Virus record (IMG/VR): IMGVR_UViG_3300035190_000963
Coordinates: 1-61,359 of that record
Length of the DNA stretch: 61,359 nt
Strand: one strand, 5' to 3'
From: a virus
Lineage: Duplodnaviria > Caudoviricetes
In this document: positions 1-31,967 of the stretch, piece after piece
Position numbering within the stretch: position 1 is the stretch's first letter
How the letters are laid out: every line of letters begins with the position of its first letter
Made by a program: the position numbers and the translations under genes
The notes under the pieces: model-generated
Told to the model about the DNA's origin: nothing
The model's database searches: none
Seen by the model: the letters and a program-made list of their open reading frames with translations, nothing else

Positions 1-69
1 GACGGGAATCGAACCTCGTGGCACAAGAAATTTCCGTTTCTCTGCTCTACCTACTGAGCTACCTCAACC
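1..69 (-). ncRNA. tRNA-like element, truncated by the window edge, with a degenerate anticodon arm
   Basis: Minus strand GGTTGAGG-TAGCTCAGTAGGTAGAGC (D arm) ... GGTTCGATTCC (T loop). The anticodon arm does not form a canonical 5-bp/7-nt structure. Confidence 0.6.
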
Positions 70-77
70 ATTTTTTG

Positions 78-158
78 TACCCCCTGTAGGATTCGAACCT
101 ACATGCTAATTTGCGATAGTTTCTAAAACTATTGTGTCTACCATTCCACCAAGGGGGC
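78..158 (-). tRNA. tRNA-Leu(TAG)
   Basis: Cloverleaf; anticodon arm ATAGT-TTTAGAA-ACTAT; long variable arm; GGTTCGAATCC. Confidence 0.93.
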
Positions 159-166
159 AATTGTTG

Positions 167-240
167 TGGTCCTCACAGGAATCGAACCTGTTACCTAATG
201 ATTATGAGTCATTTGCTCTAACCAAATGAGCTAGAGGACC
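167..240 (-). tRNA. tRNA-CAT, probably Ile2 (lysidine, reads AUA)
   Basis: Anticodon arm AATGA-CTCATAA-TCATT. Ile2 rather than Met is inferred from the GGTCCTC/TAGCTCA start and from two other CAT tRNAs in the window. Confidence 0.85.
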
Positions 241-251
241 TTTAATTATTG

Positions 252-335
252 TACCTCGAATAGGACTCGAACCTATACGACCTTTCAGGTCACCACATCT
301 TAAGCGTGGCGTGTCTACCATTTCACCACCGAGGC
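252..335 (-). tRNA. tRNA-Leu(TAA)
   Basis: Anticodon arm CCACG-CTTAAGA-TGTGG; variable arm GACCT-GAA-AGGTC. Confidence 0.93.
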
Positions 336-406
336 GTTTTATTTCTCAAATAACAACACAAAGATAATCAATATTTTACAAAAAGACAAATCTTTGTTTA
401 TTTTTT

Positions 407-497
407 TGGTCACTCTTCAGCATTCTACTTCCAGCTCCGAGAAATTGTATCTAACTTAGCCCGTCTCACCGCTGTACGGGTACTGAAGTTGATGACC
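407..497 (-). ncRNA. Structured small RNA with paired termini and an encoded 3' CCA
   Basis: GGTCA..CTTCAG pairs with CTGAAG..TGACC-A; internal hairpin CCCGT...ACGGG. Confidence 0.5.
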
Positions 498-499
498 TT

Positions 500-601
500 T
501 GTTGTTAGGATGGGACTCGAACCCACAATGAAAACCCGTCTCGGGTACCATAACCGTTTCGGCTTAAAGGATTGACTCCTTGGACTATTTTCTACCTAAC
601 A
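500..601 (-). ncRNA. tRNA-like RNA: acceptor stem and T arm with a three-hairpin core
   Basis: TGTTAGG/CCTAACA stem; GTGGG-TTCGAGT-CCCAT T arm; GAAAA/TTTTC encloses AAGGA..TCCTT, AGCCG..CGGTT and ACCCG..CGGGT. Confidence 0.65.
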
Positions 602-820
602 ATTCCCCACTCTGAGAATCCGAGTGAGTAGTTATATCGGTTTATTACTGTTTGAAAAACCTGTCGGGCATCCCCTATTAAAAAGTCAACCGTTACTGGG
701 AGCAAGGACGATTCTCCAGCTTTATTCCCACGAGACTGGCGTTTAAGGATGTCCAGTCCAATACCCTATCCATTGTTAAATGAGTCTTGGATTAAAGACT
801 GCTGAGTATCTCTTACTCAT

Positions 821-893
821 TGTAGTGTAGAAAGGAATTGAACCTTTAATCTTCCGAATAACTTCAGGGCTTTAACCATTAAGCTACTACACT
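821..893 (-). ncRNA. tRNA-like RNA with a 4-nt loop in place of the anticodon loop
   Basis: AGTGTAG/CTACACT acceptor; GCTT..AAGC D arm; CTGAA-GTTA-TTCGG; AAAGG-TTCAATT-CCTTT. Confidence 0.7.
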
Positions 894-1004
894 ATGTCCC
901 AAACTTCACTTAACACGTCTGTTAAGGGGTGTCGTGCACCGTACACCATAATCAATTCGGAAGTTTCGAACCTTCCAGTTTCAGGATAATTAATCCTGAG
1001 ATTT

Positions 1005-1188
1005 GAAATCATGGACAGGATTCGAACCTGTATTCTCATGGATTGACAACTTCCACTTGTACTGAGAATCTACGATGATTTTGAAATTGTACTTCTTTCT
1101 AATCATCAGCTACCTACTCATCACCTTGTCATTCGCTTCGTGTAGGTCATTGCTAATTGTAGTGCGTCTACCGTTTCGCCACCAGATT
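1005..1188 (-). ncRNA. tRNA-scaffold RNA with an expanded branched insert replacing the anticodon loop
   Basis: AATCTGG-TGGCGAAACGGTAGACGC D arm; CTAC..GTAG encloses ACCTAC/GTAGGT and GATGATT/AATCATC hairpins; long ATTCTCA/TGAGAAT variable arm; ACAGG-TTCGAAT-CCTGT. Confidence 0.7.
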
Positions 1189-1345
1189 ATATTTTATTCA
1201 AAGAACTTGAGTACAAAAATATGAGTTTTTTTTGGAACTACCAAAATTTTTTTCATATATAATTTTTTAATTAATAACACCCTGATTTATCCAACTTACA
1301 GGTGTTAAGGCTGTCCCCATTTTTGGGTTAGGAATAATCATTCGT

Positions 1346-1439
1346 CCTCACGAGGTCGAGCTGACTTGCTCAAGAGTTATCCCCATCCACTCTTATGTAG
1401 GTTCCCATACGGACATCACTCCGTTTCTCATCGTGTAGG
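1346..1439 (-). ncRNA. Multibranch structured RNA
   Basis: CCT(A)CACGA/TCGTGAGG closing stem with ACGGA/TCCGT, AAGAGT/ACTCTT and GAGC/GCTC hairpins. Confidence 0.45.
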
Positions 1440-1469
1440 GCACACTATCCGTTGTCGTGTTTCGGAACG

Positions 1470-1616
1470 TGTAATCAGGACAGGACTCGAACCTGTATGT
1501 ATCAATTAAAAATGTCGTCTTACTAAACATAACGCAAGACCGTCTATTATGATATGCGAGAGCCTAATTCGCATTTGATACTACATTTTAGCGTCTACCA
1601 GTTCCGCCACCTGACT
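1470..1616 (-). ncRNA. tRNA-scaffold RNA with a branched insert replacing the anticodon loop
   Basis: AGTCAGG/CCTGATT acceptor; GGCGGAACTGGTAGACGC D arm; AAAATGT/ACATTTT encloses ATGCGA/TCGCAT and GTCTTGC/GTAAGAC; ACAGG-TTCGAGT-CCTGT. Confidence 0.75.
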
Positions 1617-1617
1617 A

Positions 1618-1746
1618 TGTTGAGGATGAGAAGTCCTCTGTGTTGTCTGTACTGTTTTACCCATCATTAAAATGACCACCTTTTTTATTAAAGTCAGTTT
1701 CATACATAGCATCTGTTCAGTCTTCCTTTCTCAAGGGAACAACACA
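1618..1746 (-). ncRNA. Structured RNA with a potential kissing-loop pseudoknot
   Basis: TGTGTTGT/ACAACACA stem; TTCC-CTTGAGAAA-GGAA and GAGGA-CTTCTCA-TCCTC hairpins with complementary loops (TGAGAA/TTCTCA). Confidence 0.55.
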
Positions 1747-1751
1747 TTTTT

Positions 1752-1846
1752 TGAAATTGTTCAGTTAGACCATCTCTCCGCTATTACGGACATTCTGCAT
1801 AAACTGGTTTTCGTACAGATAGTCTGCACTCGGCCTTACAATTTCA
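1752..1846 (-). ncRNA. Structured small RNA (three-way junction)
   Basis: 9-bp terminal stem TGAAATTGT/ACAATTTCA; inner TGCAGACT/AGTTT(A)TGCA and TCCG/CGGA. Confidence 0.45.
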
Positions 1847-2210
1847 TTTAAACATCCCACTCAATGCTCGGTATTAACACATTTAGGGATGTCAACCCCA
1901 CTTTACTCAAATGGGGGGTGATACCGAATTAAGTTAGATAGTGTTGGGATACCCGTCTCGTCCCAATCTTAACAGCTTTATTTAAGTTTTACGAAGCTTC
2001 GGCTGAGGGTGCTGTACACTATGAACCTTACAACTACTTTGTCGACTTTCATTGTAAGAGTGACCACTATCTATATTTTTAAAGGAAAACAGAAGATGGT
2101 CGAGTGGACATCTGTTTTTACGAACGGCATTACTATGTTGGTTTCAACTCCGAAGGTAATCACCAACCACCAACAGGTGTCTTATCCTTCATTCCCCATT
2201 CAACCCTATT

Positions 2211-2295
2211 TTTCAAAGAACTTCTTATATATTGGGGGACAGGTCACCAACTAACCAACACAAACCTGTCCCCCTCAAATCTGAATACAAAGTTA
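2211..2295 (-). promoter_or_regulatory. Host-type promoter, hairpin and boxA-like site heading the ncRNA block
   Basis: TAACTTTG (-7 box) near 2288-2295; 11-bp hairpin at 2234-2274; GTTCTTTGAAA at 2211-2221. Confidence 0.6.
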
Positions 2296-2338
2296 CAAAA
2301 TATTTTTCAATTCTCCAAACCTTTCACAAAAAAAATTA

Positions 2339-2662
2339 TTATTCATCATCGTCATCAAAATTAAAATCATCATTTTCAGAAAATGTAAAATCTTCCATTT
2401 GTTCATCACTGAATTGTTGAATATACAAACCAAGATTTTTCTTGAAGTCATATCCTAATGAAATCAAATCTTCGGTTAGTTTTTCCCATTCAGGATATTT
2501 GTTTCCATAATAAGATAAGTTCTTATCCAAGTCAGACATGTACATATAAAAAGACCACATCGGAATTTCCATTGAACTATTGTTATCCAAAGTTAAAATG
2601 AATGTACTTTCTTCATATTCCGTGAAGTTAAACTCAAAGTTTTTTATTGTTCTCGAATTCAT
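2339..2662 (-). CDS. Hypothetical protein, acidic C-terminus
   Basis: 107-aa ORF with AT-rich codon usage typical of the window. Confidence 0.7.
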   Translation of the reverse strand: MNSRTIKNFEFNFTEYEESTFILTLDNNSSMEIPMWSFYMYMSDLDKNLSYYGNKYPEWEKLTEDLISLGYDFKKNLGLYIQQFSDEQMEDFTFSENDDFNFDDDDE

Positions 2663-2707
2663 AAAACAAATCTAAAAATAATTTTTGTAATAATCAATTT
2701 TTTTTTG

Positions 2708-2779
2708 AGCACCAAGAGAATTACGATATCTCGACCTGCGGTTTGGAAAACCGCCGCTCTACCTCTGAGCTATTGGTGC
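2708..2779 (-). tRNA. tRNA-Gly(TCC)
   Basis: Anticodon arm GCGGT-TTTCCAA-ACCGC; atypical T loop ATCGTAA. Confidence 0.85.
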
Positions 2780-3577
2780 ATTTATTTTAGATATAATATT
2801 CAAAATTTCTTTTTCATATTGTTTTTTCAATAAAGGTTTAACATCAAATCTAATAATGTTGTGATATTTTTTTATAATATTTTCTCTAGTAATTTCCTTA
2901 TTACTATTTTTATCATGCCATTGTTCACCGTCTATTTCAACCACTAAATTTATTGATGGGAAATAAAAATCAACATAATATTTCTCAACAGGATATTGAG
3001 TAAAAAAATCATAATCTTTAATTAAATTATTACTTGTTAAAAATTCCCTAAAAAATCTTTCAGGATATGTTTCATTTATCTTAGAACATCTCCTATTTGG
3101 ATGACTTTCAGGATTATTTTTATACCTCTCAATTATCTTACTTCTTATTTTTTCTTTTACTATTTCTGAATTATAAGAACATTTTTTTGAACAATATATA
3201 TGATGACTTTTTTTAACTTTTTTCCCACAATTTAAACATTCTTTTCTTTCTTTTAAAACACAATTTTTCAAATTTGAGTTTTTAATTTTTTTCTTAGTTT
3301 CTTCAGACAAAATTCTTTTTCTGTTATTGAAAGACACTCCGCAGCTTCTACCACAAAATTTCCTATCATCTGAAACATGACTTTCAAAAATTTGATGACA
3401 ATTTAAACATTCTTTTTTTATTTTAGTTTCTTCTTTAGATTTTTTAAAACCTAATCTTAAACATCTACTTGTTACTGAACGATAAGTGGTATTCAGTATT
3501 TCACTAATTTCTTTGTAATTTTTTTTGTTATTCAATAGTTCTAATAACAAATTATCTTTTTCATTGTTCCATTTCAT
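2759..3577 (-). CDS. Putative homing endonuclease: N-terminal HTH, Cys-rich Zn motifs, C-terminal DUF559/Vsr-like PD-(D/E)xK domain
   Basis: CLNC..FCGRSC repeats; YYVDFYFP..VVEIDGEQWH motif. Confidence 0.75.
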   Translation of the reverse strand: MKWNNEKDNLLLELLNNKKNYKEISEILNTTYRSVTSRCLRLGFKKSKEETKIKKECLNCHQIFESHVSDDRKFCGRSCGVSFNNRKRILSEETKKKIKNSNLKNCVLKERKECLNCGKKVKKSHHIYCSKKCSYNSEIVKEKIRSKIIERYKNNPESHPNRRCSKINETYPERFFREFLTSNNLIKDYDFFTQYPVEKYYVDFYFPSINLVVEIDGEQWHDKNSNKEITRENIIKKYHNIIRFDVKPLLKKQYEKEILNIISKINAPIAQR

Positions 3578-3641
3578 ATATTATAAATATATGTAAAAAG
3601 AGTAAAAGTTAATAATCGAACTATGTTTTTACTTAAAATTG

Positions 3642-3714
3642 AGCGGATGGCCGAGTATGATTCGGCAACCCCTACCTTGGCAAGGTAGTGCTCTACCAAT
3701 TGAGCTACATCCGC
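3642..3714 (-). tRNA. tRNA-Gly(GCC)
   Basis: CTACC-TTGCCAA-GGTAG; atypical T loop ATCATAC. Confidence 0.88.
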
Positions 3715-3720
3715 AAAAAC

Positions 3721-3800
3721 AAGATGGGTCGTGGACTTGTATACCACTTTTGTCCCCCTTTAATTAAATCACTAACCCTGGGTGTAGGAAAACTCATCTT
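3721..3800 (-). ncRNA. Structured spacer RNA between tRNAs
   Basis: AAGATGAGT/ACCCATCTT terminal stem; GTGG..CCAC inner hairpin. Confidence 0.4.
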
Positions 3801-3803
3801 TAG

Positions 3804-3877
3804 TGGAGAGTTAGGGAATTGAACCCTACTCACGATGATTGCAAATCATTGTCGCCAGCCTTGGTACATGACCCCCC
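3804..3877 (-). tRNA. tRNA-Ala(TGC)
   Basis: ATGA-TTTGCAA-TCAT; G3:U70 identity pair present. Confidence 0.88.
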
Positions 3878-3888
3878 ATTTATTTGTG

Positions 3889-3960
3889 TTGCGGTAAGTG
3901 GGTTCGAACCACTGACCTTGAGATTATGAGACTCACGAGCTACCACCGCTCTATCCCACA
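3889..3960 (-). tRNA. tRNA-Met(CAT), initiator-like
   Basis: TGAGT-CTCATAA-TCTCA; GAGC/GCTC D stem (A11:U24, typical of initiators). Confidence 0.85.
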
Positions 3961-3965
3961 ATTTG

Positions 3966-4038
3966 CGGCTCCAACGGGATTCGAACCCGTACCACGCACC
4001 GTGACAGGGTGGTATTGTGACCATTCAACCATAGAGCC
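3966..4038 (-). tRNA. tRNA-Asp(GTC)
   Basis: CACC-CTGTCAC-GGTG; G73 discriminator. Confidence 0.92.
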
Positions 4039-4060: not shown

Positions 4061-4079
4061 AACCAATATGTCAAAGAAC
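4061..4079 (-). promoter_or_regulatory. boxA-like antitermination site (array 1)
   Basis: GTTCTTTGACATATTGGTT, identical to 7703-7721; resembles rrn boxA. Confidence 0.65.
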
Positions 4080-4089
4080 CAAATTTTTT

Positions 4090-4128
4090 AAAACAAAAAA
4101 CCCATCTTTTTTTAGGAGATGGGTTTTT
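4090..4128 (-). terminator. Intrinsic terminator of attenuator 1
   Basis: AAAAACCCATCT-CCTAAAAAA-AGATGGGTTTTTTGTTTT. Confidence 0.85.
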
Positions 4129-4152: not shown

Positions 4153-4233
4153 TTACATAATACCATTTCCTACCGAGTAGATTAAATCCGATTCAGTCCC
4201 GCCTAAAAGTGTTATTATGTTTAAAGTTTTCAC
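4153..4233 (-). CDS. Putative attenuator leader peptide 1, MKTLNIITLLGGTESDLIYSVGNGIM (26 aa, GTG start)
   Basis: ORF ends about 25 nt before the terminator; its 3' part TAGGAAATGG is complementary (9/10) to the terminator 5' arm and loop CCATCTCCTA. Confidence 0.7.
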   Translation of the reverse strand: MKTLNIITLLGGTESDLIYSVGNGIM

Positions 4234-5194: not shown

Positions 5195-5320
5195 GATGCA
5201 AAGATATATTCTTTTTTTGAATCTGCCAAATTATTGGTGAGAAAAATTTACAAGTCTTAGGAGTCCTATTATTCTCTTCTTTATCCTTCGAGATGGGGAG
5301 GGATGGACTTGTAAAATTAG

Positions 5321-5405
5321 CTGACAGGATGGGACTCGAACCCATGATGGAGTTTTAACTCGTTTGGTTAACAGCCAAATGCTCTCGCCGCTGAGCGACC
5401 TGCCA
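5321..5405 (-). tRNA. tRNA-Asn(GTT) with an extra variable arm
   Basis: TTTGG-CTGTTAA-CCAAA; GAGTT-AA-AACTC extra arm. Confidence 0.88.
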
Positions 5406-5412
5406 ATTTTAG

Positions 5413-5485
5413 CATAGGTGACAGGATTCGAACCTGTGACATTTCTTTTGGAGAGAAATATGATAAACCACTTCACCACACCTAC
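5413..5485 (-). tRNA. tRNA-Trp(CCA)
   Basis: TTTCT-CTCCAAA-AGAAA. Confidence 0.9.
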
Positions 5486-5487
5486 AT

Positions 5488-5709
5488 TTACTTCCATTGA
5501 GTTTTACGATTATACTTCCAAGTTCTAAACATCCTAACCTGATACTTGAATAACCTCTTATTTGGGTTTTTAAACCCTTTTCTATATTTAGGATACTCAA
5601 CAATACCATCATCCCAATACATAGGATATTCGTAGTTTAAAAGTACTATAAAATACTCTCTGCTGTTTGTTGCTTTGTTCAGTTTTGCTCTGTTTCTGTG
5701 TTTTGACAT
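5488..5709 (-). CDS. Small basic hypothetical protein within the tRNA array
   Basis: 73-aa ORF. Confidence 0.6.
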   Translation of the reverse strand: MSKHRNRAKLNKATNSREYFIVLLNYEYPMYWDDGIVEYPKYRKGFKNPNKRLFKYQVRMFRTWKYNRKTQWK

Positions 5710-5739
5710 ATCTATTGGTTTTAAACCTAATAGAAGTCC

Positions 5740-6426
5740 TTACTTTTTTTCATAATTTTTAAATTTTAAAAAGTTCTTTTTAAATGTTTTCTTCAAGATT
5801 ATTGATGATTCTTTCCATGTTGAATGAGGTACCGTTGATAAATAAGCTTGAATCTCATCATCAATTATACTTTTAATATCAACATATCCCATTTTAACCA
5901 ATTCTTTATTTAAATAGTTATAAGTTTTTGTGGGAATTGTTTTAATAATCTCATTCACTTCCAACTTATATTCAGGATTTGTATAATATAATCCGTGAGC
6001 AATTTCGTGGTCCATAACATCGGAACTTAATTTATCAGCACCAATTAAATAGAACTTTTCATTTTTAGAATGTTTATCACAACAAGAAATAATATCTGCC
6101 ATAACATCATCATATAAATTATTAGTTTTAAAAAAAACTTTCTGACCTTTTTTTAGAACATCGGATGGAATATTATAACCCGCCCAATCTGCAGGATATG
6201 TGAACATTCCTGATTTATTTTTCTTAACATATGTCCTCATAAGTTCTTCCAAAGTAAATTCTTTATTTCTAATCTCAGGAAATGGTGACTCATAAAATTC
6301 TTGATATCTGCAGAACAACATACCTCTATCATAATCGTTTTTAACAATAACGGCATATATGTGGGGCATAATTTTATTAATTGAACCTGACACCACTTTT
6401 GACTTAAAAGATTTTAATTTTTTCAT
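5740..6426 (-). CDS. Putative HExxH metalloprotein
   Basis: DHEIAH..DEIQAY; TATCTTTG promoter upstream. Confidence 0.6.
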   Translation of the reverse strand: MKKLKSFKSKVVSGSINKIMPHIYAVIVKNDYDRGMLFCRYQEFYESPFPEIRNKEFTLEELMRTYVKKNKSGMFTYPADWAGYNIPSDVLKKGQKVFFKTNNLYDDVMADIISCCDKHSKNEKFYLIGADKLSSDVMDHEIAHGLYYTNPEYKLEVNEIIKTIPTKTYNYLNKELVKMGYVDIKSIIDDEIQAYLSTVPHSTWKESSIILKKTFKKNFLKFKNYEKK

Positions 6427-6488
6427 AATTTATTTATTTCTGAAACAAAGATATCTTTTTTTTCTTGATTTACCAAACATTTTTTTTG

Positions 6489-6562
6489 AGTCCAAAGTTG
6501 GGTTCGAACCAACGAATACTTGTTTTGCAGACAAGCCCCTTAAACCACTTGGGTATTTGGAC
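6489..6562 (-). tRNA. tRNA-Cys(GCA)
   Basis: CTTGT-CTGCAAA-ACAAG; U73. Confidence 0.92.
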
Positions 6563-6569
6563 ATTTTAG

Positions 6570-6655
6570 TGACGCAAGTGGGACTCGAACCCACAACGGC
6601 ATTACGCTCCCTTCGCATTAAAAGTGCGAAGCTCTACCAATTGAGCTATTGCGTC
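6570..6655 (-). tRNA. tRNA-Lys(TTT) with an enlarged variable region
   Basis: TCGCA-CTTTTAA-TGCGA; variable region of about 18 nt. Confidence 0.88.
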
Positions 6656-6661
6656 ATTTTG

Positions 6662-6736
6662 TCGTCTCGGATGGACTTGAACCATCGACTTTCATCGTAT
6701 CAGGATGACACTCTAATCCAACTGAGTTACGAGACG
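6662..6736 (-). tRNA. tRNA-Ile(GAT)
   Basis: TCATC-CTGATAC-GATGA. Confidence 0.92.
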
Positions 6737-6741
6737 AATTG

Positions 6742-6817
6742 TAGAGTAGACAGGACTTGAACCTGCAATAATGTCCTTGTCCCAAACAAGGCGACTTACC
6801 AATTAGTCTACTACTCT
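6742..6817 (-). tRNA. tRNA-Pro(TGG)
   Basis: CCTTG-TTTGGGA-CAAGG. Confidence 0.9.
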
Positions 6818-6829
6818 ATATATTTTTTG

Positions 6830-6917
6830 CTGAGAGAAGTGGAATCGAACCACGCCCAACTTAATGGGTTATTGTTTAGCAAACAATCGGGGACACCATT
6901 TCCCTCCTTTACTCTCA
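6830..6917 (-). tRNA. tRNA-Ser(GCT)
   Basis: ATTGT-TTGCTAA-ACAAT; long variable arm. Confidence 0.88.
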
Positions 6918-6958
6918 ATTTATCCCGACCTAGCTCGGGAACACACATCGGATGTTTG

Positions 6959-7031
6959 TAGTCTCCTTGGGATTTGAACCCAAACTTTATCATCCGTAGT
7001 GATAGGTGCTTATCCATTACACCAAGAGACC
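6959..7031 (-). tRNA. tRNA-Arg(ACG)
   Basis: TATCA-CTACGGA-TGATA. Confidence 0.92.
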
Positions 7032-7036
7032 ATTCG

Positions 7037-7119
7037 CGGAAGCGAAGGGAATTGAACCCCCAAAGCTGTTACACCCGACTGTTTTCAAGACAGTTTCCTC
7101 GTCCATTCGGACCACTTCC
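7037..7119 (-). tRNA. tRNA-Ser(TGA)
   Basis: ACTGT-CTTGAAA-ACAGT; long variable arm. Confidence 0.92.
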
Positions 7120-7126
7120 ATTGTTG

Positions 7127-7208
7127 TCGGAGTAGGAGGACTCGAACCTCCGAACTCTAATGAGGGCTGATTTACAGTCAGCTGCAATTGCCACTATGCG
7201 ATACTCCG
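7127..7208 (-). tRNA. tRNA-Tyr(GTA)
   Basis: GCTGA-CTGTAAA-TCAGC; long variable arm. Confidence 0.92.
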
Positions 7209-7212
7209 ATTT

Positions 7213-7291
7213 TGGGGTGTTGTACGAGATTCGAACTCGTGACCTGATGAACCACAATCATCCGCTCTAAACCAACTGAGCTAACAACACC
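7213..7291 (-). tRNA. tRNA-His(GTG)
   Basis: GATGA-TTGTGGT-TCATC; G-1 and encoded CCA. Confidence 0.93.
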
Positions 7292-7371
7292 ATATAAACC
7301 CCCCATTTACCAGATTATCGGACTGGTTGCCATATTGGGAGTGGGGGATTTCCTGTTTATTCAGGACTCCG

Positions 7372-7446
7372 TGGTGAGGGTGAGAATCGAACTCACATCA
7401 CTCGCTCTTCAGACGAGCGCGAACTGACCAACTGCGCTACCTCACC
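7372..7446 (-). tRNA. tRNA-Phe(GAA)
   Basis: CTCGT-CTGAAGA-GCGAG. Confidence 0.9.
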
Positions 7447-7456
7447 AATTATAATG

Positions 7457-7530
7457 TAGTCCCCCCATGAATCGAACACGGGACTTATTGTTTGTAAAAC
7501 AATCACTCTAAACCACTGAGCTAGGGGACC
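7457..7530 (-). tRNA. tRNA-Val(TAC)
   Basis: ATTGT-TTTACAA-ACAAT. Confidence 0.9.
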
Positions 7531-7539
7531 GAATTTATG

Positions 7540-7611
7540 TAGTGATGGGAGGAATTGAACCTCCGACCTCTTGGATATGAATCAAGGGTTCTTCCACTGA
7601 ACTACATCACT
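7540..7611 (-). tRNA. tRNA-Met(CAT), elongator-like
   Basis: CTTG-ATTCATATC-CAAG anticodon arm; AGTGATG/CATCACT acceptor. Confidence 0.85.
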
Positions 7612-7616
7612 ATCTG

Positions 7617-7687
7617 TTGTCGGTGATGGGTTCGAACCACCATCATTTCTTCCAAAGAGAAATATCCTGCCATTAGACGAACCGACA
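7617..7687 (-). tRNA. tRNA-Gln(TTG)
   Basis: TTTCT-CTTTGGA-AGAAA. Confidence 0.9.
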
Positions 7688-7702: not shown

Positions 7703-7721
7703 AACCAATATGTCAAAGAAC
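7703..7721 (-). promoter_or_regulatory. boxA-like antitermination site (array 2)
   Basis: GTTCTTTGACATATTGGTT, identical to 4061-4079. Confidence 0.65.
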
Positions 7722-7722
7722 T

Positions 7723-7766
7723 AAAACAAAAAACCCCGAACTTTTTACGGTTCGGGGTTTTTTTTT
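7723..7766 (-). terminator. Intrinsic terminator of attenuator 2
   Basis: AAAAAACCCCGAAC-CGTAAAAA-GTTCGGGGTTTTTTGTTTT. Confidence 0.88.
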
Positions 7767-7791
7767 ACAATTATATGTTATTATCTAAATC

Positions 7792-7890
7792 TCACGATTT
7801 TACCGAACCAATAAATAACATACGGGGATACCAACAGTTACTAAACTGCGATTTCACGACTTGGATATTATGTTTATTAATTCGTTTCAT
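7792..7890 (-). CDS. Putative attenuator leader peptide 2, MKRINKHNIQVVKSQFSNCWYPRMLFIGSVKS (32 aa)
   Basis: ATG about 25 nt after the promoter; its 3' part TTTAT(T)GGTTCGG is complementary to the terminator 5' arm and loop CCGAACCGTAAA. Confidence 0.8.
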   Translation of the reverse strand: MKRINKHNIQVVKSQFSNCWYPRMLFIGSVKS

Positions 7891-7914
7891 TTTATTATAT
7901 TTTAATAAGTATTA

Positions 7915-7946
7915 CAAAGTTAGTAAAAGTTTCTGTATTTGTCAAA
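7915..7946 (-). promoter_or_regulatory. Bacteroidota sigma-70-type promoter driving leader 2 and tRNA array 2
   Basis: TTTG-N20-TAACTTTG. Confidence 0.8.
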
Positions 7947-9698: not shown

Positions 9699-11516
9699 TT
9701 ACAAATAGTATGACCCTCCTTTTTTATTTCTTGGGTTGGGTGATGTATTATCAGTCCTTCTTTTTGGTTTTTGATTACTCAAACGTAAAGAAATATCGGC
9801 TAATGACCCCTTTTTAACTTCAAACATATCATTTCTATTCACAGGTATATTTTCACGTATTGGTCTTTTACTCGTGTTAGGATTATAAACTTCTTTTTTA
9901 TTTATTACGTGATTTAGAAAATCATAATTAATATTAGTAGTATGTTTTTTAACCCTTTCTGTTAGTAATTTTACAATTTCTTTATTTTGTTCAATTTTTA
10001 TTCTAACTTGTTCATTAAATTCATCATTAGTTTTTTGAACATAAACTTCGTAGTATGAACCTGTAGTTAGTACTGGTAGTGGGCCGAAATGTTTTCTATT
10101 TCTACTGATTGAATTGTAACTTGACCTTTTTGATGAACCAATTCCAGTATCTTTTCTTTGTGTTAGACTATTTTTATGAACTCTTCTGAAAAATACCACG
10201 TCAGATGTTAAGGCTATTTTACGATTGTTTTTATATAATCTACTCATAAAATCAGTATCGGCTTCACATACCCACCCCTCAAAACCATTCATTGATAAAA
10301 AAACATCCTTTTTAATTGAGAAAACACCATCACCAAAATTACTAGTTTTTTTAGTATTTTTTCCCTCTATTTCATATTCATTTTTAAAGTTAAAATACAT
10401 TAGTCTAACAACATCAAAATCTTTTTGTTTTGATATTATTTCTTCTATCATATTTTCACACATAATATCATCAGAATCAAAAAATAAAATGATATTTGAA
10501 TTTGCTATTTTGGATAATGTATTTTTGATTATATAAGGACCAGCATGATTTTTAAAATAAAAAACACTAAATCTATTGTCAAATATTTTATATTTTAAAT
10601 GGGTTAATGTTTCTTCACATGCGTCAATTCCTATTAATACCTCACAATTTATATTTCCGATTGATTTTGTGATTGACTCTAAACATTTATCAATATATTG
10701 AACATTTTTGTATGTTGGTATAATAATGCTAAACTCTTTGTCGGTTTCCTCTTTGATTAAACTAAATGAATCAATCAAATATTTTTCATAAAACAAATCA
10801 TCAACTAAGATTGAGTTTGAGATTACTAATTCTTTTAAAGGTTGTTTTAAATTTCTTTCTATTTTATATTTTTTTTCATTATGATATTTTTTTCGTAATA
10901 ATGATTTCATTCCTGTTGAAGGTAACAAAGTTAAATTTGTATCATGTCTTCTATATAAAATATTGATTTCTTTTGATAATGATATTTTGTAATTATTTGA
11001 TTGGATTCTCCAAAAAAACTCACCATCTGATGCACATAACCAAGGTTCAAATCCATTCATTTCTAAAAAAACACTTTTTTTGATTCCAAAAGCACCATAA
11101 GAATACGAAAAAGGTTTATTTAAAACCTCTTTTTTTGGTATATCTAATTTATTATTAAATGTAATATATCCAAAACGAAAATAATCATTACCACTTTGTA
11201 ATGAACTAATCGTAGATTTAACAGTATCGGTTATCATTACATCATCGGAATCAAAAAATATTAAATTATCATATTTTGACAATTTAACCAATGAATTCCT
11301 TATGATGTAAGTTCCAACTTTATTTTTAAAAAAATATATTTTAATATTTTTATTTAAATTAGGGTACAGTGAAATTAAATTGTCCATAGTTTTACGACAA
11401 TTATCAACACCTATCAAAATTTCATAATCATGATTTTCACACGATTCAATAAAAGAATCAATCGCTTCCTTTATATATTTTGTATTGTTATAGGCGGTTG
11501 TTATTATAGATATCAT
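9699..11516 (-). CDS. Tandem GT2 glycosyltransferase (two GT-A domains)
   Basis: Two copies of SIII(T/P)(A/T)Y..FFDSDD..MNGFE.W. Confidence 0.85.
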   Translation of the reverse strand: MISIITTAYNNTKYIKEAIDSFIESCENHDYEILIGVDNCRKTMDNLISLYPNLNKNIKIYFFKNKVGTYIIRNSLVKLSKYDNLIFFDSDDVMITDTVKSTISSLQSGNDYFRFGYITFNNKLDIPKKEVLNKPFSYSYGAFGIKKSVFLEMNGFEPWLCASDGEFFWRIQSNNYKISLSKEINILYRRHDTNLTLLPSTGMKSLLRKKYHNEKKYKIERNLKQPLKELVISNSILVDDLFYEKYLIDSFSLIKEETDKEFSIIIPTYKNVQYIDKCLESITKSIGNINCEVLIGIDACEETLTHLKYKIFDNRFSVFYFKNHAGPYIIKNTLSKIANSNIILFFDSDDIMCENMIEEIISKQKDFDVVRLMYFNFKNEYEIEGKNTKKTSNFGDGVFSIKKDVFLSMNGFEGWVCEADTDFMSRLYKNNRKIALTSDVVFFRRVHKNSLTQRKDTGIGSSKRSSYNSISRNRKHFGPLPVLTTGSYYEVYVQKTNDEFNEQVRIKIEQNKEIVKLLTERVKKHTTNINYDFLNHVINKKEVYNPNTSKRPIRENIPVNRNDMFEVKKGSLADISLRLSNQKPKRRTDNTSPNPRNKKGGSYYL

Positions 11517-11518
11517 AT

Positions 11519-12160
11519 CTAAAAATTTTTTATATTAGTTAAATGTCCCCATTTTTTTTTTAATCTTTTTTTATATTCAATATAGTTTCCCCATTGATAT
11601 TTAACAGTTCTACATGTGTAACTATGATGTTGTATATTATTTAAAAGTATTCGCCCTTCAGAATCTAAATGACTTTTTCCCCAATTTAGAGGTAAAGAAT
11701 AAGTTCCTTTATTCATTTTTTCCTTTATACCTATACAATAATCTTCAACACAAAAATGAAAATCGTCAAAAATAATTTCATCAAATTTAAAATCATTATC
11801 TTTATTAATCACAAAAAAACAAGGGTCACAAAATTTCAATTCATATTTTGTAGATGCTAATGACCCAATATTTTTATTAAATTCATCTTTTCCTACAATA
11901 CATAACACCCCAAAATTTGGAGTCTCACTAATACATTTTTCTATTTGTTCTAATAAATTATGTGAGAATGTTATATCCTCATGTGAAAAAATAATATATT
12001 TATTAGGTGATTCTTTTTGTACTAAATTAAAAAACTTAGACGGTTTTATATTTGGTTTTGATATTATATCAACGTTATCAATAATATTATCTAAACAAGG
12101 TTTTAAATATTTTTCAAAAACATCTTTTTTATATTCTATATATGAAAATGTGAATCTCAT
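11519..12160 (-). CDS. GT-A fold glycosyltransferase
   Basis: YIIFSHEDI and FDE..FDDFHFCVEDYC motifs; in an operon with other GTs. Confidence 0.65.
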   Translation of the reverse strand: MRFTFSYIEYKKDVFEKYLKPCLDNIIDNVDIISKPNIKPSKFFNLVQKESPNKYIIFSHEDITFSHNLLEQIEKCISETPNFGVLCIVGKDEFNKNIGSLASTKYELKFCDPCFFVINKDNDFKFDEIIFDDFHFCVEDYCIGIKEKMNKGTYSLPLNWGKSHLDSEGRILLNNIQHHSYTCRTVKYQWGNYIEYKKRLKKKWGHLTNIKNF

Positions 12161-12161
12161 T

Positions 12162-12779
12162 TTAATTTAATGGTTTATCATTTGGGGTTAATTTAGATAT
12201 CGTGTTATTCCCATGAATACCTAGTTTTACATACCCTCTAGGTATATAGATAATATTTTTTGTAATCCCCTTTAAATGGTCGTGAACACAATCCATGATA
12301 CCACTATTCACTTTTTTTTGAATTAATGTACTAAACATTGAGCAAACTTTAGAATAATCTCTTCCATGAGTATATTCCTTACCTGTGTCTATAACCAATT
12401 TAGTGGGGTGAAAATTTAAAATAAAATCATCATATTTGTTCTTATTCTCATCATAAAGATTATGTATGTATTCAATATAGTTTGGTACCATTATATCGTC
12501 ACAATCATGTCTTGTTTGTATTGTAATATTATTTTTAACAACAAAATCTTTATAATCTTTTTTTGTGTCTGAAAATGGTATTAAATCAATTTCAATGTCT
12601 TTATTAATTTCATTTCTAATTAAATCGTAATGTCTTGGATTAACAATCAAAGCAATTGAAAAGTTTTTATCCGTTTGAGAATTAATTGATGGGATGTAAG
12701 TTTTCTTCATTACTTTAAAGTAATTTTCAAATTGTTCATCTTTACCGAATTTACATCTAGTAACTATTATGTGTTTCAT
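12162..12779 (-). CDS. Putative rhamnosyl/glycosyltransferase
   Basis: IVTR..PSINSQTDKNF..TRHDCDD. Confidence 0.65.
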   Translation of the reverse strand: MKHIIVTRCKFGKDEQFENYFKVMKKTYIPSINSQTDKNFSIALIVNPRHYDLIRNEINKDIEIDLIPFSDTKKDYKDFVVKNNITIQTRHDCDDIMVPNYIEYIHNLYDENKNKYDDFILNFHPTKLVIDTGKEYTHGRDYSKVCSMFSTLIQKKVNSGIMDCVHDHLKGITKNIIYIPRGYVKLGIHGNNTISKLTPNDKPLN

Positions 12780-12780
12780 T

Positions 12781-13515
12781 TTAATCTACTGTTATTACAT
12801 TTTTATTTTCTTTGGCCACAATATACCCTAGAATTCTTTCTACGGCGTGCATTGTGGATGGCTCTATAATATATCCGGGTTGGGTGTTATTCATTATTTG
12901 ATTTATAACGTTTTCTGTAAAATATTTTTTTATTATACCATATCTCACCCAAAAAATAGTACCCCCTATAAAATTTTTGTCAAGATATGTGGAGTCCAAT
13001 CCGAATAAAGGTAATAATTTAACGATATTATTTTTATTAACGGAAGAATTATTATATAATTTATACCCAACCATTCCACAATTATTATCTATTTTAAATT
13101 TATTTAAAATTCTATTAACTTTATCCTCATCCATTAAAACTCCCTTCATTAATCCATGAAACCACTGTCTACCGTGACTAATAGATACATCAATACCACT
13201 ACGTTTTACTCTTAAGGAGGGACTATTGGGTAAACCGATTCCTTTTTTTGTATGAATTTTTAGAACTAAATCAGTATCATTATCGATTACTTTTAAACAA
13301 TTTAAAAAACCACCAATATCCACTCCTTTGTTTTCAACAAATAATATTACCGCATCACTTTTATATTTTTTTATTTTTTCTATAATATCATTTGTGTAAT
13401 ATCCATTTACTAATGTTATGTATAATTTATACGGATGTTTCAAATTATTTAAATAATTAACAATATCGTTAAACATATCAGGATAGAATAAATGAACACA
13501 AACCGCAATCTTCAT
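12781..13515 (-). CDS. RgpF/WcbX-like rhamnan synthesis protein
   Basis: VHLFY.D, ENKGVDIGGF, LKIHTKK, GTIFW, HAVER. Confidence 0.75.
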   Translation of the reverse strand: MKIAVCVHLFYPDMFNDIVNYLNNLKHPYKLYITLVNGYYTNDIIEKIKKYKSDAVILFVENKGVDIGGFLNCLKVIDNDTDLVLKIHTKKGIGLPNSPSLRVKRSGIDVSISHGRQWFHGLMKGVLMDEDKVNRILNKFKIDNNCGMVGYKLYNNSSVNKNNIVKLLPLFGLDSTYLDKNFIGGTIFWVRYGIIKKYFTENVINQIMNNTQPGYIIEPSTMHAVERILGYIVAKENKNVITVD

Positions 13516-28158: not shown

Positions 28159-30018
28159 TTAATTTTTATTAACTTCCTCAAATTCGACATCTGAACCATC
28201 AAAACCCGTATCTGTCGTTGTTTGATTATAAAGGTCTTGACTAATTTTTTGGAACTTCAAGTTAATTTCATCTAGTTTTGTTCGGATAGATTCAATATCC
28301 CTACCACTTATTGATTTTTTTAATTCTTCAATACCATTTACAACCTCACTTTTTTGTTCCTCGGACAATTTATCGTCCAAGTCTTTTAATGATTTTTCCA
28401 TTTGAAATACTGTTGAATCGGCAGTATTGATTAACTCAGCTTCTTCTTTGAATTTCTTATCCGATTCTGCATTCAACTCAGCATCTTTTTTCATTTTTTC
28501 AATATCTTCTTTTGAAAGTCCTGAAGATGACTCAATTCTAATTTCTTGTTTTTTATTAGTCCCTTTATCAAGTGCCGAAACTTGAATAATACCATTTGCA
28601 TCAATATCAAATGTAACTTCAATTTGTGGAATACCTCTCATTGAAGGGGGAATACCATCTAAATGGAATCGACCAATTGTTTTATTGTCTTTTGCCATAC
28701 TTCTTTCTCCTTGGAGAACGTGAATTTCAACTGATGGTTGGTTATCTACTGCGGTAGAGAAAACTTGAGATTTTTTAGTTGGGATTGTGGTATTTGATTC
28801 AATTAATTTTGTAAATACACCACCCATAGTTTCAATTCCTAATGATAAAGGAGTAACATCAAGTAACAATACATCTTTTACATCACCACCCAATACACCA
28901 CCTTGAATCGCGGCACCTAATGCCACAACCTCATCAGGATTTACACCTTTTGAAGGTTCTTTTCCGAAATATTTTTTAACCGCTTCCTGAATTGCGGGAA
29001 TACGTGTTGAACCTCCAACCAAAATAATTTCATCAATTTGGTCAGGATTTAATTTTGCATTTCTTAATGCCGATTTACAAGGTTCAATTGTTCTTTCAAC
29101 CAATTTTTCAATTAATTGTTCAAACTTAGCTTTAGTCAAATTTCTAACCAAATGTTTTGGTACACCATCCACCGGCATTAAATAAGGTAAATTAATCTCA
29201 GTTGATGGAGTTGATGACAATTCAATTTTAGCCTTCTCAGAGGATTCTTTTAATCGTTGTAGCGCCATTGAATCTTTTGACACATCAACGCCATTTTCAT
29301 CTTTAAATTCTTTCACCAACCAATCAATAATCACCTGGTCGAAGTCATCACCACCAAGATGTGTATCACCATCAGTTGATAATACTTCAAATACACCATC
29401 ACCCAATTCTAATACAGATACGTCATGTGTGCCACCACCACAGTCGAACACAACAACAATCATATCTTTATCTTTTTTATCTAACCCATACGCTAATGCC
29501 GCAGCGGTTGGTTCATTAATAATTCGTCTAACATTTAGACCTGCAATTTCACCTGCTTCTTTTGTTGCCTGTCTTTGAGCATCATTAAAATACGCAGGAA
29601 CTGTAATAACCGCATCAGTCACAGTTTCACCTAAATAATCTTCAGCGGTTTGTTTCATTTTTTGTAGTACCGCAGCAGATATCTCCTGTGGTGTAAATGT
29701 TCTACCATCAATATCCACTCTTGGTGTGTCATTATCACCCTTAACTACTTTATAAGGAACTCTACCAACCTCATTGATTGATTCTGAATACTTAGACCCC
29801 ATAAATCGTTTTATGGAATAAACCGTTTTTGTTGGATTCGTGACCGCTTGTCGTTTAGCAGAGTCACCTACTTTTCTTTCACCATCTTTAATGAATCCTA
29901 CGATAGATGGAGTTGTTCTTTTGCCTTCATTATTTGTAATTACAGTAGGTCCACTACTTTCCATAACTGCAACACATGAATTTGTGGTACCTAAATCCAC
30001 GCCTATTATTTTTCCCAT
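28159..30018 (-). CDS. dnaK: Hsp70 chaperone DnaK
   Basis: [40 protein letters not shown]. Confidence 0.97.
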
Positions 30019-30216
30019 GTTTTTAATTTTTTTTGTTTAGTTTATTTTTTTTAAATTTAGTTAATTTATTTTATGGAATCAAGTCCGAAACAAATATTGT
30101 TAAAAACCATACCAAATTAATAATACAGACATTTTGTCATTAAATTTGAAAAAATGTCAGATTAATATGACATTTTTTCATTTTGATTTTTATTTTTTTA
30201 TTTGTAACTTTGTGAA

Positions 30217-30408
30217 ATGGATAATAAGAAAAAAAATACTAATATTGCACCCTTAACAAAGTGGGAGGTGATATACGAAGATGAAAATACCTTGGATATT
30301 TGGAGATATGATATCAAAGTAAGTCGTATTAATCCATATGAGGTTGAAATACTATATAAAAATGATAAGAATGACAGAGCAAAAATTGCAAGAATGAACA
30401 AAAAGTGA
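30217..30408 (+). CDS. Hypothetical protein
   Basis: 63 aa; TAACTTTG promoter directly upstream. Confidence 0.6.
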   Translation: MDNKKKNTNIAPLTKWEVIYEDENTLDIWRYDIKVSRINPYEVEILYKNDKNDRAKIARMNKK

Positions 30409-30421
30409 TATTTATCATAAT

Positions 30422-30847
30422 ATGAAAATGATTTCTGTTCTTGGTCAACGAATCGATAAACAATATTTGTTATCAAAACTATATGAAATGGGTTTTGATG
30501 AAGAAAGTGCTGAAGATGAATTAGAGTACTTGATTGATTATTTATATGAACTACCTGACCTTATTGATTTATATAGAATAATCTCTGTCGATAATAAAAA
30601 AGATATTGATATAAAAAAACCGGGCTCACATTACTCAACATCAAAAAAAGATTTATTAAAATCTTACTCTTTTTGTACAGGTTGTGGTGATGAAATCTAT
30701 CTACTAACAGTAGAATCACCAAAAGAATTGATTGATATATCACAAACTTTGGCAAATAGGATACTTTATCCAAATGAACAAGAGATAACCTTAAAAAATA
30801 AAGGTAGTGGGGTTAACACGGTCTCAATTAAAAAAATCAAACGTTAG
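30422..30847 (+). CDS. Putative ADP-ribosyltransferase-fold protein
   Basis: LYR .. HYST .. EQEI matches the R-S-ExE pattern. Confidence 0.5.
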   Translation: MKMISVLGQRIDKQYLLSKLYEMGFDEESAEDELEYLIDYLYELPDLIDLYRIISVDNKKDIDIKKPGSHYSTSKKDLLKSYSFCTGCGDEIYLLTVESPKELIDISQTLANRILYPNEQEITLKNKGSGVNTVSIKKIKR

Positions 30848-30849
30848 AA

Positions 30850-31524
30850 TTAATTTTCTTTTGATGCGTATTTTACACCCATAATAGTTCCGATAATACT
30901 AAATGCGTTGGTTAATAAAATACCAAGCATGTTTGACCATGTTGACCCAATAATCTGAGTGTCTTTGTTCATATATAAAGAAATCATATACATGATTGTT
31001 GTAATCACCCCAACAGTTATAATAACACCTAAAGAAACTTTAACGATAACACTAATCAATTCTGTTTGACTTTTTTTCTGTAACAAATCCAAATCATTCA
31101 TCGCAACATGTTTTGCATTTTCAGCCTCAATACGTGCTTGTTCTGATTTAATCATTGATTCTCGTAACTCCTGACCAATTCTTTGGTTGTCTTCTTTCCA
31201 AGAGGTTAGTTCTCGGTTTTGTAATTCAATCTGAGATTTGGATTCCTCAACACTCGTTAAAGTGTTTTGTAATTCAGTCATTATTCTTTGATTCTCTAAG
31301 TTTAATTCAGAAAGTTCTTTATTTTGGATTTGGACTTGTTTTGTTATTTCTAATCTTCTTCTTCTTATTTCTTTATCTTTTGAAATACAGAAATCAAGAT
31401 ACTCTTTGAATTCAATATTATCATCAGCGTCAATTACTTTAGCAATATTACCCTCAAGGGCGATATTTTTTGACTTATTTAAATCAATTAATTGTTGTTG
31501 ACTATTTTTATCAAATACTATCAT
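30850..31524 (-). CDS. Coiled-coil protein with two C-terminal TM helices
   Basis: Heptad-rich middle; two hydrophobic segments; ATGA-coupled to the response regulator. Confidence 0.7.
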   Translation of the reverse strand: MIVFDKNSQQQLIDLNKSKNIALEGNIAKVIDADDNIEFKEYLDFCISKDKEIRRRRLEITKQVQIQNKELSELNLENQRIMTELQNTLTSVEESKSQIELQNRELTSWKEDNQRIGQELRESMIKSEQARIEAENAKHVAMNDLDLLQKKSQTELISVIVKVSLGVIITVGVITTIMYMISLYMNKDTQIIGSTWSNMLGILLTNAFSIIGTIMGVKYASKEN

Positions 31525-31955
31525 TTATATATTTTAAATGGTGCGGTTCTATTTTTGTAACTTTCGTAATCTTGTCTAAACTCATCTAACCTTGGTTCAA
31601 TGTCATCCGATTTTATAATCCAAAATTGAGCACCCGCCTGTAGAGCTTTTGCTTGTTCTTCAGGTTCATCTGAAGATGAAATAATCCCAATAACTACATT
31701 GTTCCCGTATTCAAAATTTATTTTTCTTATTAACTCAATACCATCAAAGGAAGAACCAATAATATTTAAATCAACGAATACACATTCAGGTCTATCACTA
31801 TTATCCCCAGTTAACCATCGTTTAAATAGTTTCGCCGCTTCATCCGAACTGTTTAAAGATTTTAGTGAAAGACTAATATCCAATAACGAACACGCATCTT
31901 CGAATACTAAATGGAATAAATCTTCATCATCCACTAATAAAATTGAATCAATCAT
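31521..31955 (-). CDS. Single-domain response regulator (receiver)
   Basis: LLVDD, VFVDL phospho-Asp, ISSS, WIIK. Confidence 0.88.
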   Translation of the reverse strand: MIDSILLVDDEDLFHLVFEDACSLLDISLSLKSLNSSDEAAKLFKRWLTGDNSDRPECVFVDLNIIGSSFDGIELIRKINFEYGNNVVIGIISSSDEPEEQAKALQAGAQFWIIKSDDIEPRLDEFRQDYESYKNRTAPFKIYK

Positions 31956-31967
31956 TTTTTTGTTTTT

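Follow-up and report, generated by a model that had tools for sequence, protein, structure and literature searches.

A leader peptide that matches the tRNA array behind it: a probable ribosome-coupled attenuator in phages of Bacteroidota

Introduction

Why should a short open reading frame (ORF) in front of a phage tRNA array be built from exactly the amino acids that the tRNAs of the array carry? This question is raised by a 61-kb virus record, which was analyzed over its whole length of 61,359 nucleotides (the window). The contig contains genes for thymidylate synthase and endolysin, and in one protein search the best cultured match was a Flavobacterium phage; this match and the promoter consensus described below suggest a host in the Bacteroidota. 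Minus-strand ORFs at 9699-13515 and 28159-33593 look like glycosyltransferases, DnaK and a sensor-kinase/response-regulator pair. These labels were read off the translations, and the DnaK label is backed by a separate search.

Leader-peptide attenuators include trpL, hisL, pheL and leuL, the multivalent thrL and ilvL, and pheM in front of pheST; trpL and hisL use tandem regulatory codons. A general description of leader-peptide transcription attenuators is found in the available part of PMC4833913. The original prediction for the present locus held that the leader monitors the charged-tRNA pool and induces replacement tRNAs when any of them is depleted. We consider it highly probable that the locus is a ribosome-coupled attenuator and that it regulates the very tRNAs by which the leader is decoded, an arrangement that would provide negative feedback.

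Results

The promoter of the first cassette (7915-7946, minus strand, predicted from the sequence) consists of a -33 element TTTG at 7946-7943, a spacer of 20 nt and the -7 element TAACTTTG at 7922-7915. The promoters of the window follow the Bacteroidota consensus TTTG/TANNTTTG given in the available text of PMC6847099, and the -33/-7 pair is kept upstream of the leader in 16 of 17 close relatives. The leader ORF (7792-7890) has 32 codons, MKRINKHNIQVVKSQFSNCWYPRMLFIGSVKS, and an A-rich start context. Its codons 26-30 form the antiterminator segment (7803-7815, core GGTTCGG), and the intrinsic terminator (7728-7763) is a hairpin of 14 pairs, six of them G-C, with a loop of 8 and a U tract. 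A putative antitermination signal, the boxA-like 17-mer at 7705-7721, follows and has an identical copy at 4079-4063. The first block of the tRNA array, called with ARAGORN and Rfam (6488-7687), comprises Gln, Met, Val, Phe, His, Tyr, Ser(TGA), Arg(ACG), Ser(GCT), Pro, Ile(GAT), Lys and Cys; the tRNAs for Trp and Asn, which also belong to the census, are found by ARAGORN at 5320-5485. All elements of the cassette, from the promoter through the tRNAs, lie on the minus strand, and the promoter, 32-codon ORF, terminator, boxA and 15 tRNAs of the original prediction were each located where it had placed them.

At its default setting ARAGORN called 14 of the 15 listed tRNAs. Ser(GCT), at 6906-6831, is a weak call, scored by Rfam at 27.6 bits against a gathering score of 29 and found by ARAGORN at a lowered threshold. 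Neither of the two leaders in the window matches any PHROG. No terminator is predicted between an upstream 88-aa ORF and the leader promoter (7964-7946, minus strand), so upstream transcripts may also enter the switch. A AAACATAAT stretch occurs in both leaders of the window, at 7874-7866 and 4222-4214 on the minus strand, though not in the same reading frame, and AACA-A does not vary across an alignment of 24 leader sequences; these shared letters are possibly an RNA-level element, for example a pause or a helix arm. The spacer between the tRNAs for Phe and His (7370-7291, minus strand) is structured, with a fold of about -19 to -24 kcal/mol, and conserved in six relatives. It has no Rfam match and could be a small RNA.

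Codons 1-24 of the leader contain all 14 amino acids of the array, and A, D, E, G, L and T are absent; the codon listing bears out the claim that this stretch uses exactly those 14. Serine is encoded by TCG and AGT, arginine by CGA and CGT, and isoleucine by ATT and ATC, as had been claimed. Several leader codons are not in Watson-Crick relation to the array anticodons (Val GTC/GTG and TAC, Pro CCC and TGG, Ser TCG and TGA, Gln CAG and TTG) and need wobble, so the isoacceptor match holds at the level of the codon box and not for each anticodon. H, F, C, W, Y, P and the internal M have one codon each. With the census cut at codon 24, which had been picked post hoc, the composition departs from codon usage: under the codon usage of the window, the probability that 23 codons all fall in the array set is 3.4e-5, and the probability that all 13 non-Met residues are covered, given 23 in the set, is 0.0043. 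None of 12,988 23-residue stretches from the long ORFs of the window lies wholly in the set.

The end of the leader was said to pair with the 5' arm and loop of the terminator. In folding, 7815-7803 and 7755-7744 indeed form a duplex of -13.8 kcal/mol; the terminator hairpin 7763-7728 is present in the minimum-energy fold of the entire leader. The nascent window RNA was also folded with a 30-nt ribosome mask, in a model that describes equilibrium and not kinetics. The antiterminator probability in this model is 0.68-0.84 with the ribosomal A site at codons 2-22, 0.57 at codon 23, 0.54 at codon 24, 0.26 at codon 25 and 0 beyond. The modelled flip at codons 24-25 coincides with the end of the census; the model places this boundary independently of it. 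The predicted polarity, in which a finished leader masks the antiterminator and an earlier stall frees it, is reproduced. Without a ribosome, the nascent RNA is predicted to favor the antiterminator at equilibrium (0.71). The full-length fold contains a protector 1:2 helix that joins codons 3-9 to codons 23-29; it is weak across families (mean z -0.71, with 9 of 40 below -1.65), and a conserved 1:2 helix is not established.

Relatives were collected by scanning viral, metagenome and genome collections for DNA patterns, which gave at least 285 loci, with 80 loci per scan having full flanks. The rule used for finding cassettes is blind to array content. Among the loci listed and the window there were 992 boxA-like matches, 286 with a terminator and 279 with a candidate ORF. 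These yield at least 172 distinct leaders in at least 43 peptide families, which were set by similarity of the peptides and are perhaps not wholly independent. At 150 of the 152 distinct terminator and boxA sites with a tRNA within 700 nt, among the matches listed, an ATG ORF of 18-45 codons ends 19-43 nt before the hairpin (7.5% in shuffles), the 19-43-nt range being derived from the same data. An earlier pass that allowed 0-75 nt had given stop-to-hairpin distances of 19-43 nt in 163 leaders among the loci listed. The homologs of the leader ORF are open with the frame preserved: in the focal family, the frame between two anchors is kept in 27 of 31 scored leaders (of 38), across six lengths, whereas the spacer beyond the stop occurs in each of the three frames. 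A short, conserved and open ORF is thus present between the promoter and the regulated genes, as in known attenuators. A BLAST search of the array against GenBank phages gave matches to single tRNAs alone. By its sequence signature, the design appears to be widespread among Bacteroidota phages.

The leader ends of these relatives also pair with the terminator 5' arm and loop, and the pairing is compensatory. For 40 families, the mean energy of the cognate leader-terminator duplex is -14.0 kcal/mol, versus -9.3 kcal/mol for non-cognate combinations (0 of 100,000 permutations). A perfect complement of at least 6 nt occurs in 50 of 55 focal-family members in many sequence versions, among them GGTTCGG/CCGAACC, AGTTCAG/CTGAACT and CTGTAGTTC/GAACTACAG; the antiterminator covaries with the terminator arm. 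The terminator and a mutually exclusive antiterminator that overlaps the end of the ORF are found together, as an attenuator would require.

One representative was taken from each of 31 families with arrays of at least four amino acids and set against every array, with Met excluded; 12 families with short or missing arrays were dropped, and two visibly wrong picks, L087 (second cassette missed) and L038 (doubtful ORF), were kept. The leaders contain 0.915 of the amino acids of their own array, compared with 0.638 in shuffled pairings, and 0.777 of the leader codons belong to the array, compared with 0.519; neither value was reached in 100,000 permutations. The overall agreement is 0.793 against 0.507 when shuffled, and the own array ranks first in 23 of the 31 families, ties being counted as first. 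The claim that leader codons track array content among relatives is therefore confirmed, and three phage records from outside the survey, described below, agree with it.

The match depends on position. In 72 leaders of 22 families it is 0.92 in the middle of the leader (expected 0.50), 0.52-0.57 at codons 2-3, and 0.46 from the antiterminator to the stop (expected 0.51), so it is restricted to the region upstream of the antiterminator. In close relatives Thr often stands at codon 2 or 3 though the array is without a Thr tRNA. Within the focal family, relatives that have gained a Glu tRNA (L159, L236 and L270) have Glu in the leader, and in L025 and L061 Trp shifts its position and is never lost. 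The sensing codons are accordingly tied to the regulated function and confined to the predicted stall window, as in attenuators.

Synonymous codons follow the array as well; the numbers given here are family-weighted codon counts and are small. For Arg, arrays with CGN tRNAs only go with 9.5 CGN to 1.0 AGR codons (background 25% CGN), and AGR-only arrays with 7.2 AGR to 1.6 CGN. For Leu, the ratio is 15.5 to 0.8 in TTR-only arrays and 18.2 to 6.5 in CTN-only arrays (background 31% CTN); for Ser, it is 5.7 to 0.7 in AGY-only arrays. For Ile, ATY-only arrays give 18.5 to 2.2 and ATA-only arrays 5.8 ATA to 3.2 ATY, the latter class resting partly on the C4/C5 acceptor rule, which we take to identify Ile2. 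G-ending codons are enriched in the leaders (NNG 0.34 versus 0.19 expected, in 34 of 40 families), and the arrays have mostly U34 anticodons. This enrichment persists after the antiterminator (0.31) and is for that reason not claimed as sensing; it may make decoding more sensitive or be a consequence of RNA structure. For NNT, the idea that wobble codons are generally preferred was rejected (0.75 versus 0.75).

Two or three cassettes are present at 21 loci, with arrays delimited by a gap rule of 1,500 nt. Of 44 leaders at these loci, 34 are fitted best by their own array, 3 are tied, and 7 prefer another array, including the second leader of the window. This second leader (4153-4233, minus strand) has a GTG start, where its homologs in relatives start with ATG, and 26 codons rich in T, L, G and I, with ATA codons; its modelled switch window is codons 6-18. 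No strict promoter was found ahead of the second cassette (4233-4063). Its terminator (4128-4096) and the boxA copy are followed by a -7 box at 4059-4052 (the region 4063-4128 holding the first two), and the second tRNA region (1-4038, minus strand; ARAGORN), with Asp, CAU, Ala, Gly, Gly, Leu, CAU and Leu, ends at the contig edge. The fit is 3/17 to its own array, which is cut by the contig end, and 7/17 to the first array; relatives of this leader fit their own arrays better (13/16, 12/16 and 11/16). No Thr or Glu tRNA was called in the second region before the contig end.

Other observations concern the same region. Three CAU tRNAs lie on the minus strand, at 240-166, 3960-3888 and 7611-7539. 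The one at 240-166 has C4/C5 with G68/G69 and occupies the position of Ile(TAT) in relatives; by the C4/C5 acceptor rule it may be Ile2. An HNH-like ORF (3577-2759, minus strand) is inserted between the two Gly tRNAs. A long minus-strand stretch without sizeable ORFs (2250-400) has promoters at 2295 and 1221 and a boxA-like site at 2221-2205. Within it, 2080-1937 and 1497-1275 reach 91-92% identity in relatives and 822-602 about 70-75%; weak tRNA-like matches are seen at 601-502 and 1079-1007, and an odd tRNA at 893-822 (minus strand). No Rfam family reaches its cut-off in 2250-400, and its pieces are candidates for RNAs of a new type.

The switch appears to gate the tRNAs only in part. A lineage-specific insert (5488-6453, minus strand; delimited from the sequence and relatives) contains ORFs of 228 and 73 aa and a promoter, TTG-N20-TATCTTTG, at 6453-6446, upstream of the two ORFs and the Trp and Asn tRNAs. 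The original prediction had already noted, correctly, that these two tRNAs lie beyond two ORFs and an internal promoter. The 1,003-nt insert is absent from nine relatives, in which the Cys-Trp spacing is 5-161 nt without a promoter pattern, so the Trp and Asn entries of the census are probably relics of a contiguous array. Between the terminator and the first tRNA there is no -7 box in the first cassette of the window, nor in any of 19 close leaders; overall, such a box stands behind the terminator in 32 of 152 cassettes. These boxes and the separate promoter of Trp and Asn make the gating partial.

Six GenBank records or regions were checked, and three of them, none used to build the census test, have cassettes. 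The 735,411-bp phage genome LR756501.1 has four, preceding Trp/His/Phe/Lys/Ser, five Leu tRNAs, Ile/Cys/Asp/Asn/Tyr and Met/Gln/Ile(TAT)/Glu. With core limits drawn by eye, they fit their own arrays at 14/17, 6/13 (5/13 for the next best), 8/13 and 12/14, and the leader before the five Leu tRNAs contains all six Leu codons. The isolate Tenacibaculum phage Gundel_1 has two cassettes. In its first leader, codons 6-15 are all Tyr, Ser, Cys, Phe or Trp, with Tyr-like, Trp, Phe, Ser, Cys-like and Ser tRNAs downstream, and the modelled boundary is at codon 15-16; the second cassette precedes Pro, Gln, CAU, Asn and Leu, and the single His codon in it has no His tRNA as counterpart. No boxA match was found in either Gundel_1 cassette. 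At L313:7641-7655 of this phage, a -7 box ends a few bases before the leader ATG, which suggests that the transcript is leaderless or nearly so. The isolate Cellulophaga phage Calle_1 has three cassettes that fit their own arrays at 12/14, 17/19 and 12/12 and other arrays at no more than 2; a duplex energy of -2.7 for its first cassette was rejected as an artefact of a mis-picked terminator. Gundel_1, Calle_1 and the 735-kb phage thus have the same design with different codon sets. No cassette was detected in the examined regions of Flavobacterium phage immuto_2-6A, Kehishuvirus tikkala and Lak-B5, by a detector that also missed one Gundel_1 cassette, and Tenacibaculum phage pT24 is without a boxA match.

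Discussion

In the proposed mechanism, the host RNA polymerase would start at the -33/-7 promoter and a ribosome would follow it. With the A site at codons 2-22, the antiterminator is predicted by folding to be free and to take the terminator 5' arm; from codon 25-26 to the stop, the ribosome would mask the antiterminator and the terminator would form. A shortage of charged tRNAs of the array's own kinds could make the ribosome lag and let transcription pass into the tRNA genes. Read-through would take the polymerase across boxA, where Nus factors would likely be loaded for the long untranslated RNA; the tRNAs made in this way would speed decoding of the leader and so close a negative feedback loop on tRNA supply. 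Candidate causes of the shortage are host tRNA cleavage, starvation and the load of late phage translation. The available part of PMC10264068 documents that host tRNAs become depleted in infection, and this is a plausible natural trigger. The accessible portion of PMC9723704 considers leader-peptide attenuation likely upstream of amino-acid operons of Flavobacterium psychrophilum, which we count in favor of ribosome-polymerase coupling in the host.

As a whole, the claim of an attenuator responding to the charged-tRNA pool is upheld by the relatives, the geometry and the modelled polarity. The part of it that may be too strong is induction when any one tRNA is depleted, because several amino acids have one leader codon. 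Many residues with a single codon, unlike the tandem codons of trpL and hisL, might mean that only severe or cumulative slowing flips the switch.

A multivalent leader of the thr/ilv kind, which senses amino-acid starvation and to which tRNA identity is irrelevant, would have the same geometry. Stalling on uncharged tRNA is indistinguishable by sequence from loss of the tRNA, and the best Rfam likeness of the leader is to Thr_leader, at 32.5 bits, below the cut-off of 55. However, synonymous codons follow the isoacceptor box of the array against background usage. The tRNA-Arg(TCT) of the window (9456-9383, minus strand) is not part of the cassette but is located upstream of it, and AGA is absent from the leader though this codon makes up 70% of Arg codons; moreover, an extra tRNA would supply no amino acid. 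We therefore regard a starvation sensor as unlikely. Somewhat less probable still is a switch that gauges overall translation, that is, ribosome loading or speed under antibiotics or shut-off, in which the codon match prevents false firing. One codon per amino acid would suit an integrating gauge, the folding without a ribosome favors read-through, and the available text of PMC10272220 describes a cyanobacterial trn array induced by general translational stress. But where arrays are split within a genome, each has a leader of its own and the codon sets complement one another, even for a Leu-only array, and a general gauge would need none of this.

The boxA has to be weighed in the same way, since a hairpin and boxA could belong to an rRNA-operon-style leader for constitutive transcription, with the ORF incidental. 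The phage boxA is identical to that of host rrn operons. Its 16-mer was found in 12 of 151 genomes sampled from the phylum to which a Bacteroidales assembly belongs, and at 11 of 15 host loci (8 genomes) it lies in the 16S-23S spacer. As to likeness with rRNA operon antitermination, the identical 16-mer of the Bacteroidota spacer is what is shared; the difference is that the phage boxA stands after the terminator and before tRNAs, where it is unable to act on that terminator. The Gundel_1 cassettes have no boxA match, and the presence of the ORF, the conservation of its frame and the position-limited codon match would go unexplained; such a leader has about the same small chance as the translation gauge. 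A terminator directly before boxA has 3 matches in 185,579 species genomes, none in a host rRNA or tRNA operon, and one of them, L263, is a contig of 1.5 kb that shares its leader with the metagenome locus L205. A host origin of this order was not found. In the attenuator reading, boxA is probably an aid to processivity after the switch decision, because it lies downstream of the terminator and is missing in Gundel_1. Action of the leader peptide in trans as a small protein has scarcely any probability: some residues are conserved within a family, but 43 unrelated peptide families occupy the same position, Trp moves yet stays present in L025 and L061, and it is codons and not residues that are conserved.

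The proposed ribosome-coupled attenuator would work like trpL, hisL and thrL attenuation except for its regulated genes and the tandem codons, and it matches no Rfam family: Thr_leader, His_leader and the other leader families all stay below their gathering thresholds for this leader. Shared with the known type are the short ORF overlapping the antiterminator, the stop shortly before an intrinsic terminator, the sensing codons confined upstream of the antiterminator and a predicted stall that leads to read-through. In contrast, the genes downstream are tRNAs and not genes for amino-acid biosynthesis, transport or synthetases. The phage leaders cover 1 to about 19 amino acids, mostly without tandem runs; where the known type has one to three regulatory amino acids in tandem or dense runs, the focal leader has 14, many of them single, and dense runs are confined to specialised cassettes. 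The phage leaders also match isoacceptor boxes, and the regulated product is the decoding molecule itself.

In the available parts of PMC8421152 and PMC10272220, the cyanobacterial trn operon (L-array) is a long tRNA array under TrcR. It resembles the phage case in being long and in its induction by translational stress, and differs in that TrcR, a ribbon-helix-helix repressor, acts at initiation; attenuation, a leader peptide or a terminator are not mentioned in the main text of PMC8421152 as available. In function, this array is the nearest parallel.

Papers on PARIS and retrons reportedly describe phage tRNAs as counter-defence against anticodon nucleases. The available portion of PMC10264068 likewise gives a selective reason to restore specific tRNAs in infection; it and similar reports, as far as available, concern the presence of tRNAs or resistance, with no sensor, and the word attenuation is absent from it. 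The stem "attenuat" is absent from the main texts of the Gundel_1/Calle_1 paper (PMC8776804) and the huge-phage paper (PMC7162821), and "attenuation" from that of a 2026 survey of phage tRNAs (PMC13015707). We found no description of attenuation of tRNA arrays in the openly accessible literature searched.

The reason why phages carry tRNAs has been unclear for over 50 years, according to the available text of PMC10264068. We tentatively suggest, at somewhat less than even chances, that a programmable sensor of the tRNA pool has arisen repeatedly in Bacteroidota phages ranging from podoviruses of 73 kb to giants of 735 kb. Each sub-array would be wired to its own census leader, would detect the loss of specific isoacceptors, for example by host anticodon-nuclease cleavage, and would replace just that group on demand. 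If this is true, phage tRNAs would serve as a counter-defence that can be induced, and from the leaders one could read which tRNAs become limiting in infection. A sensor linking array to codons would imply that tRNAs are made on shortage and not to offset a fixed codon bias, and it would extend attenuation to direct feedback control of tRNA genes. The idea is testable in the isolates Calle_1, with three cassettes, and Gundel_1, with two, where one cassette can be the control for another. A further use of the leaders could be as small reporters of tRNA charging in Bacteroidota.
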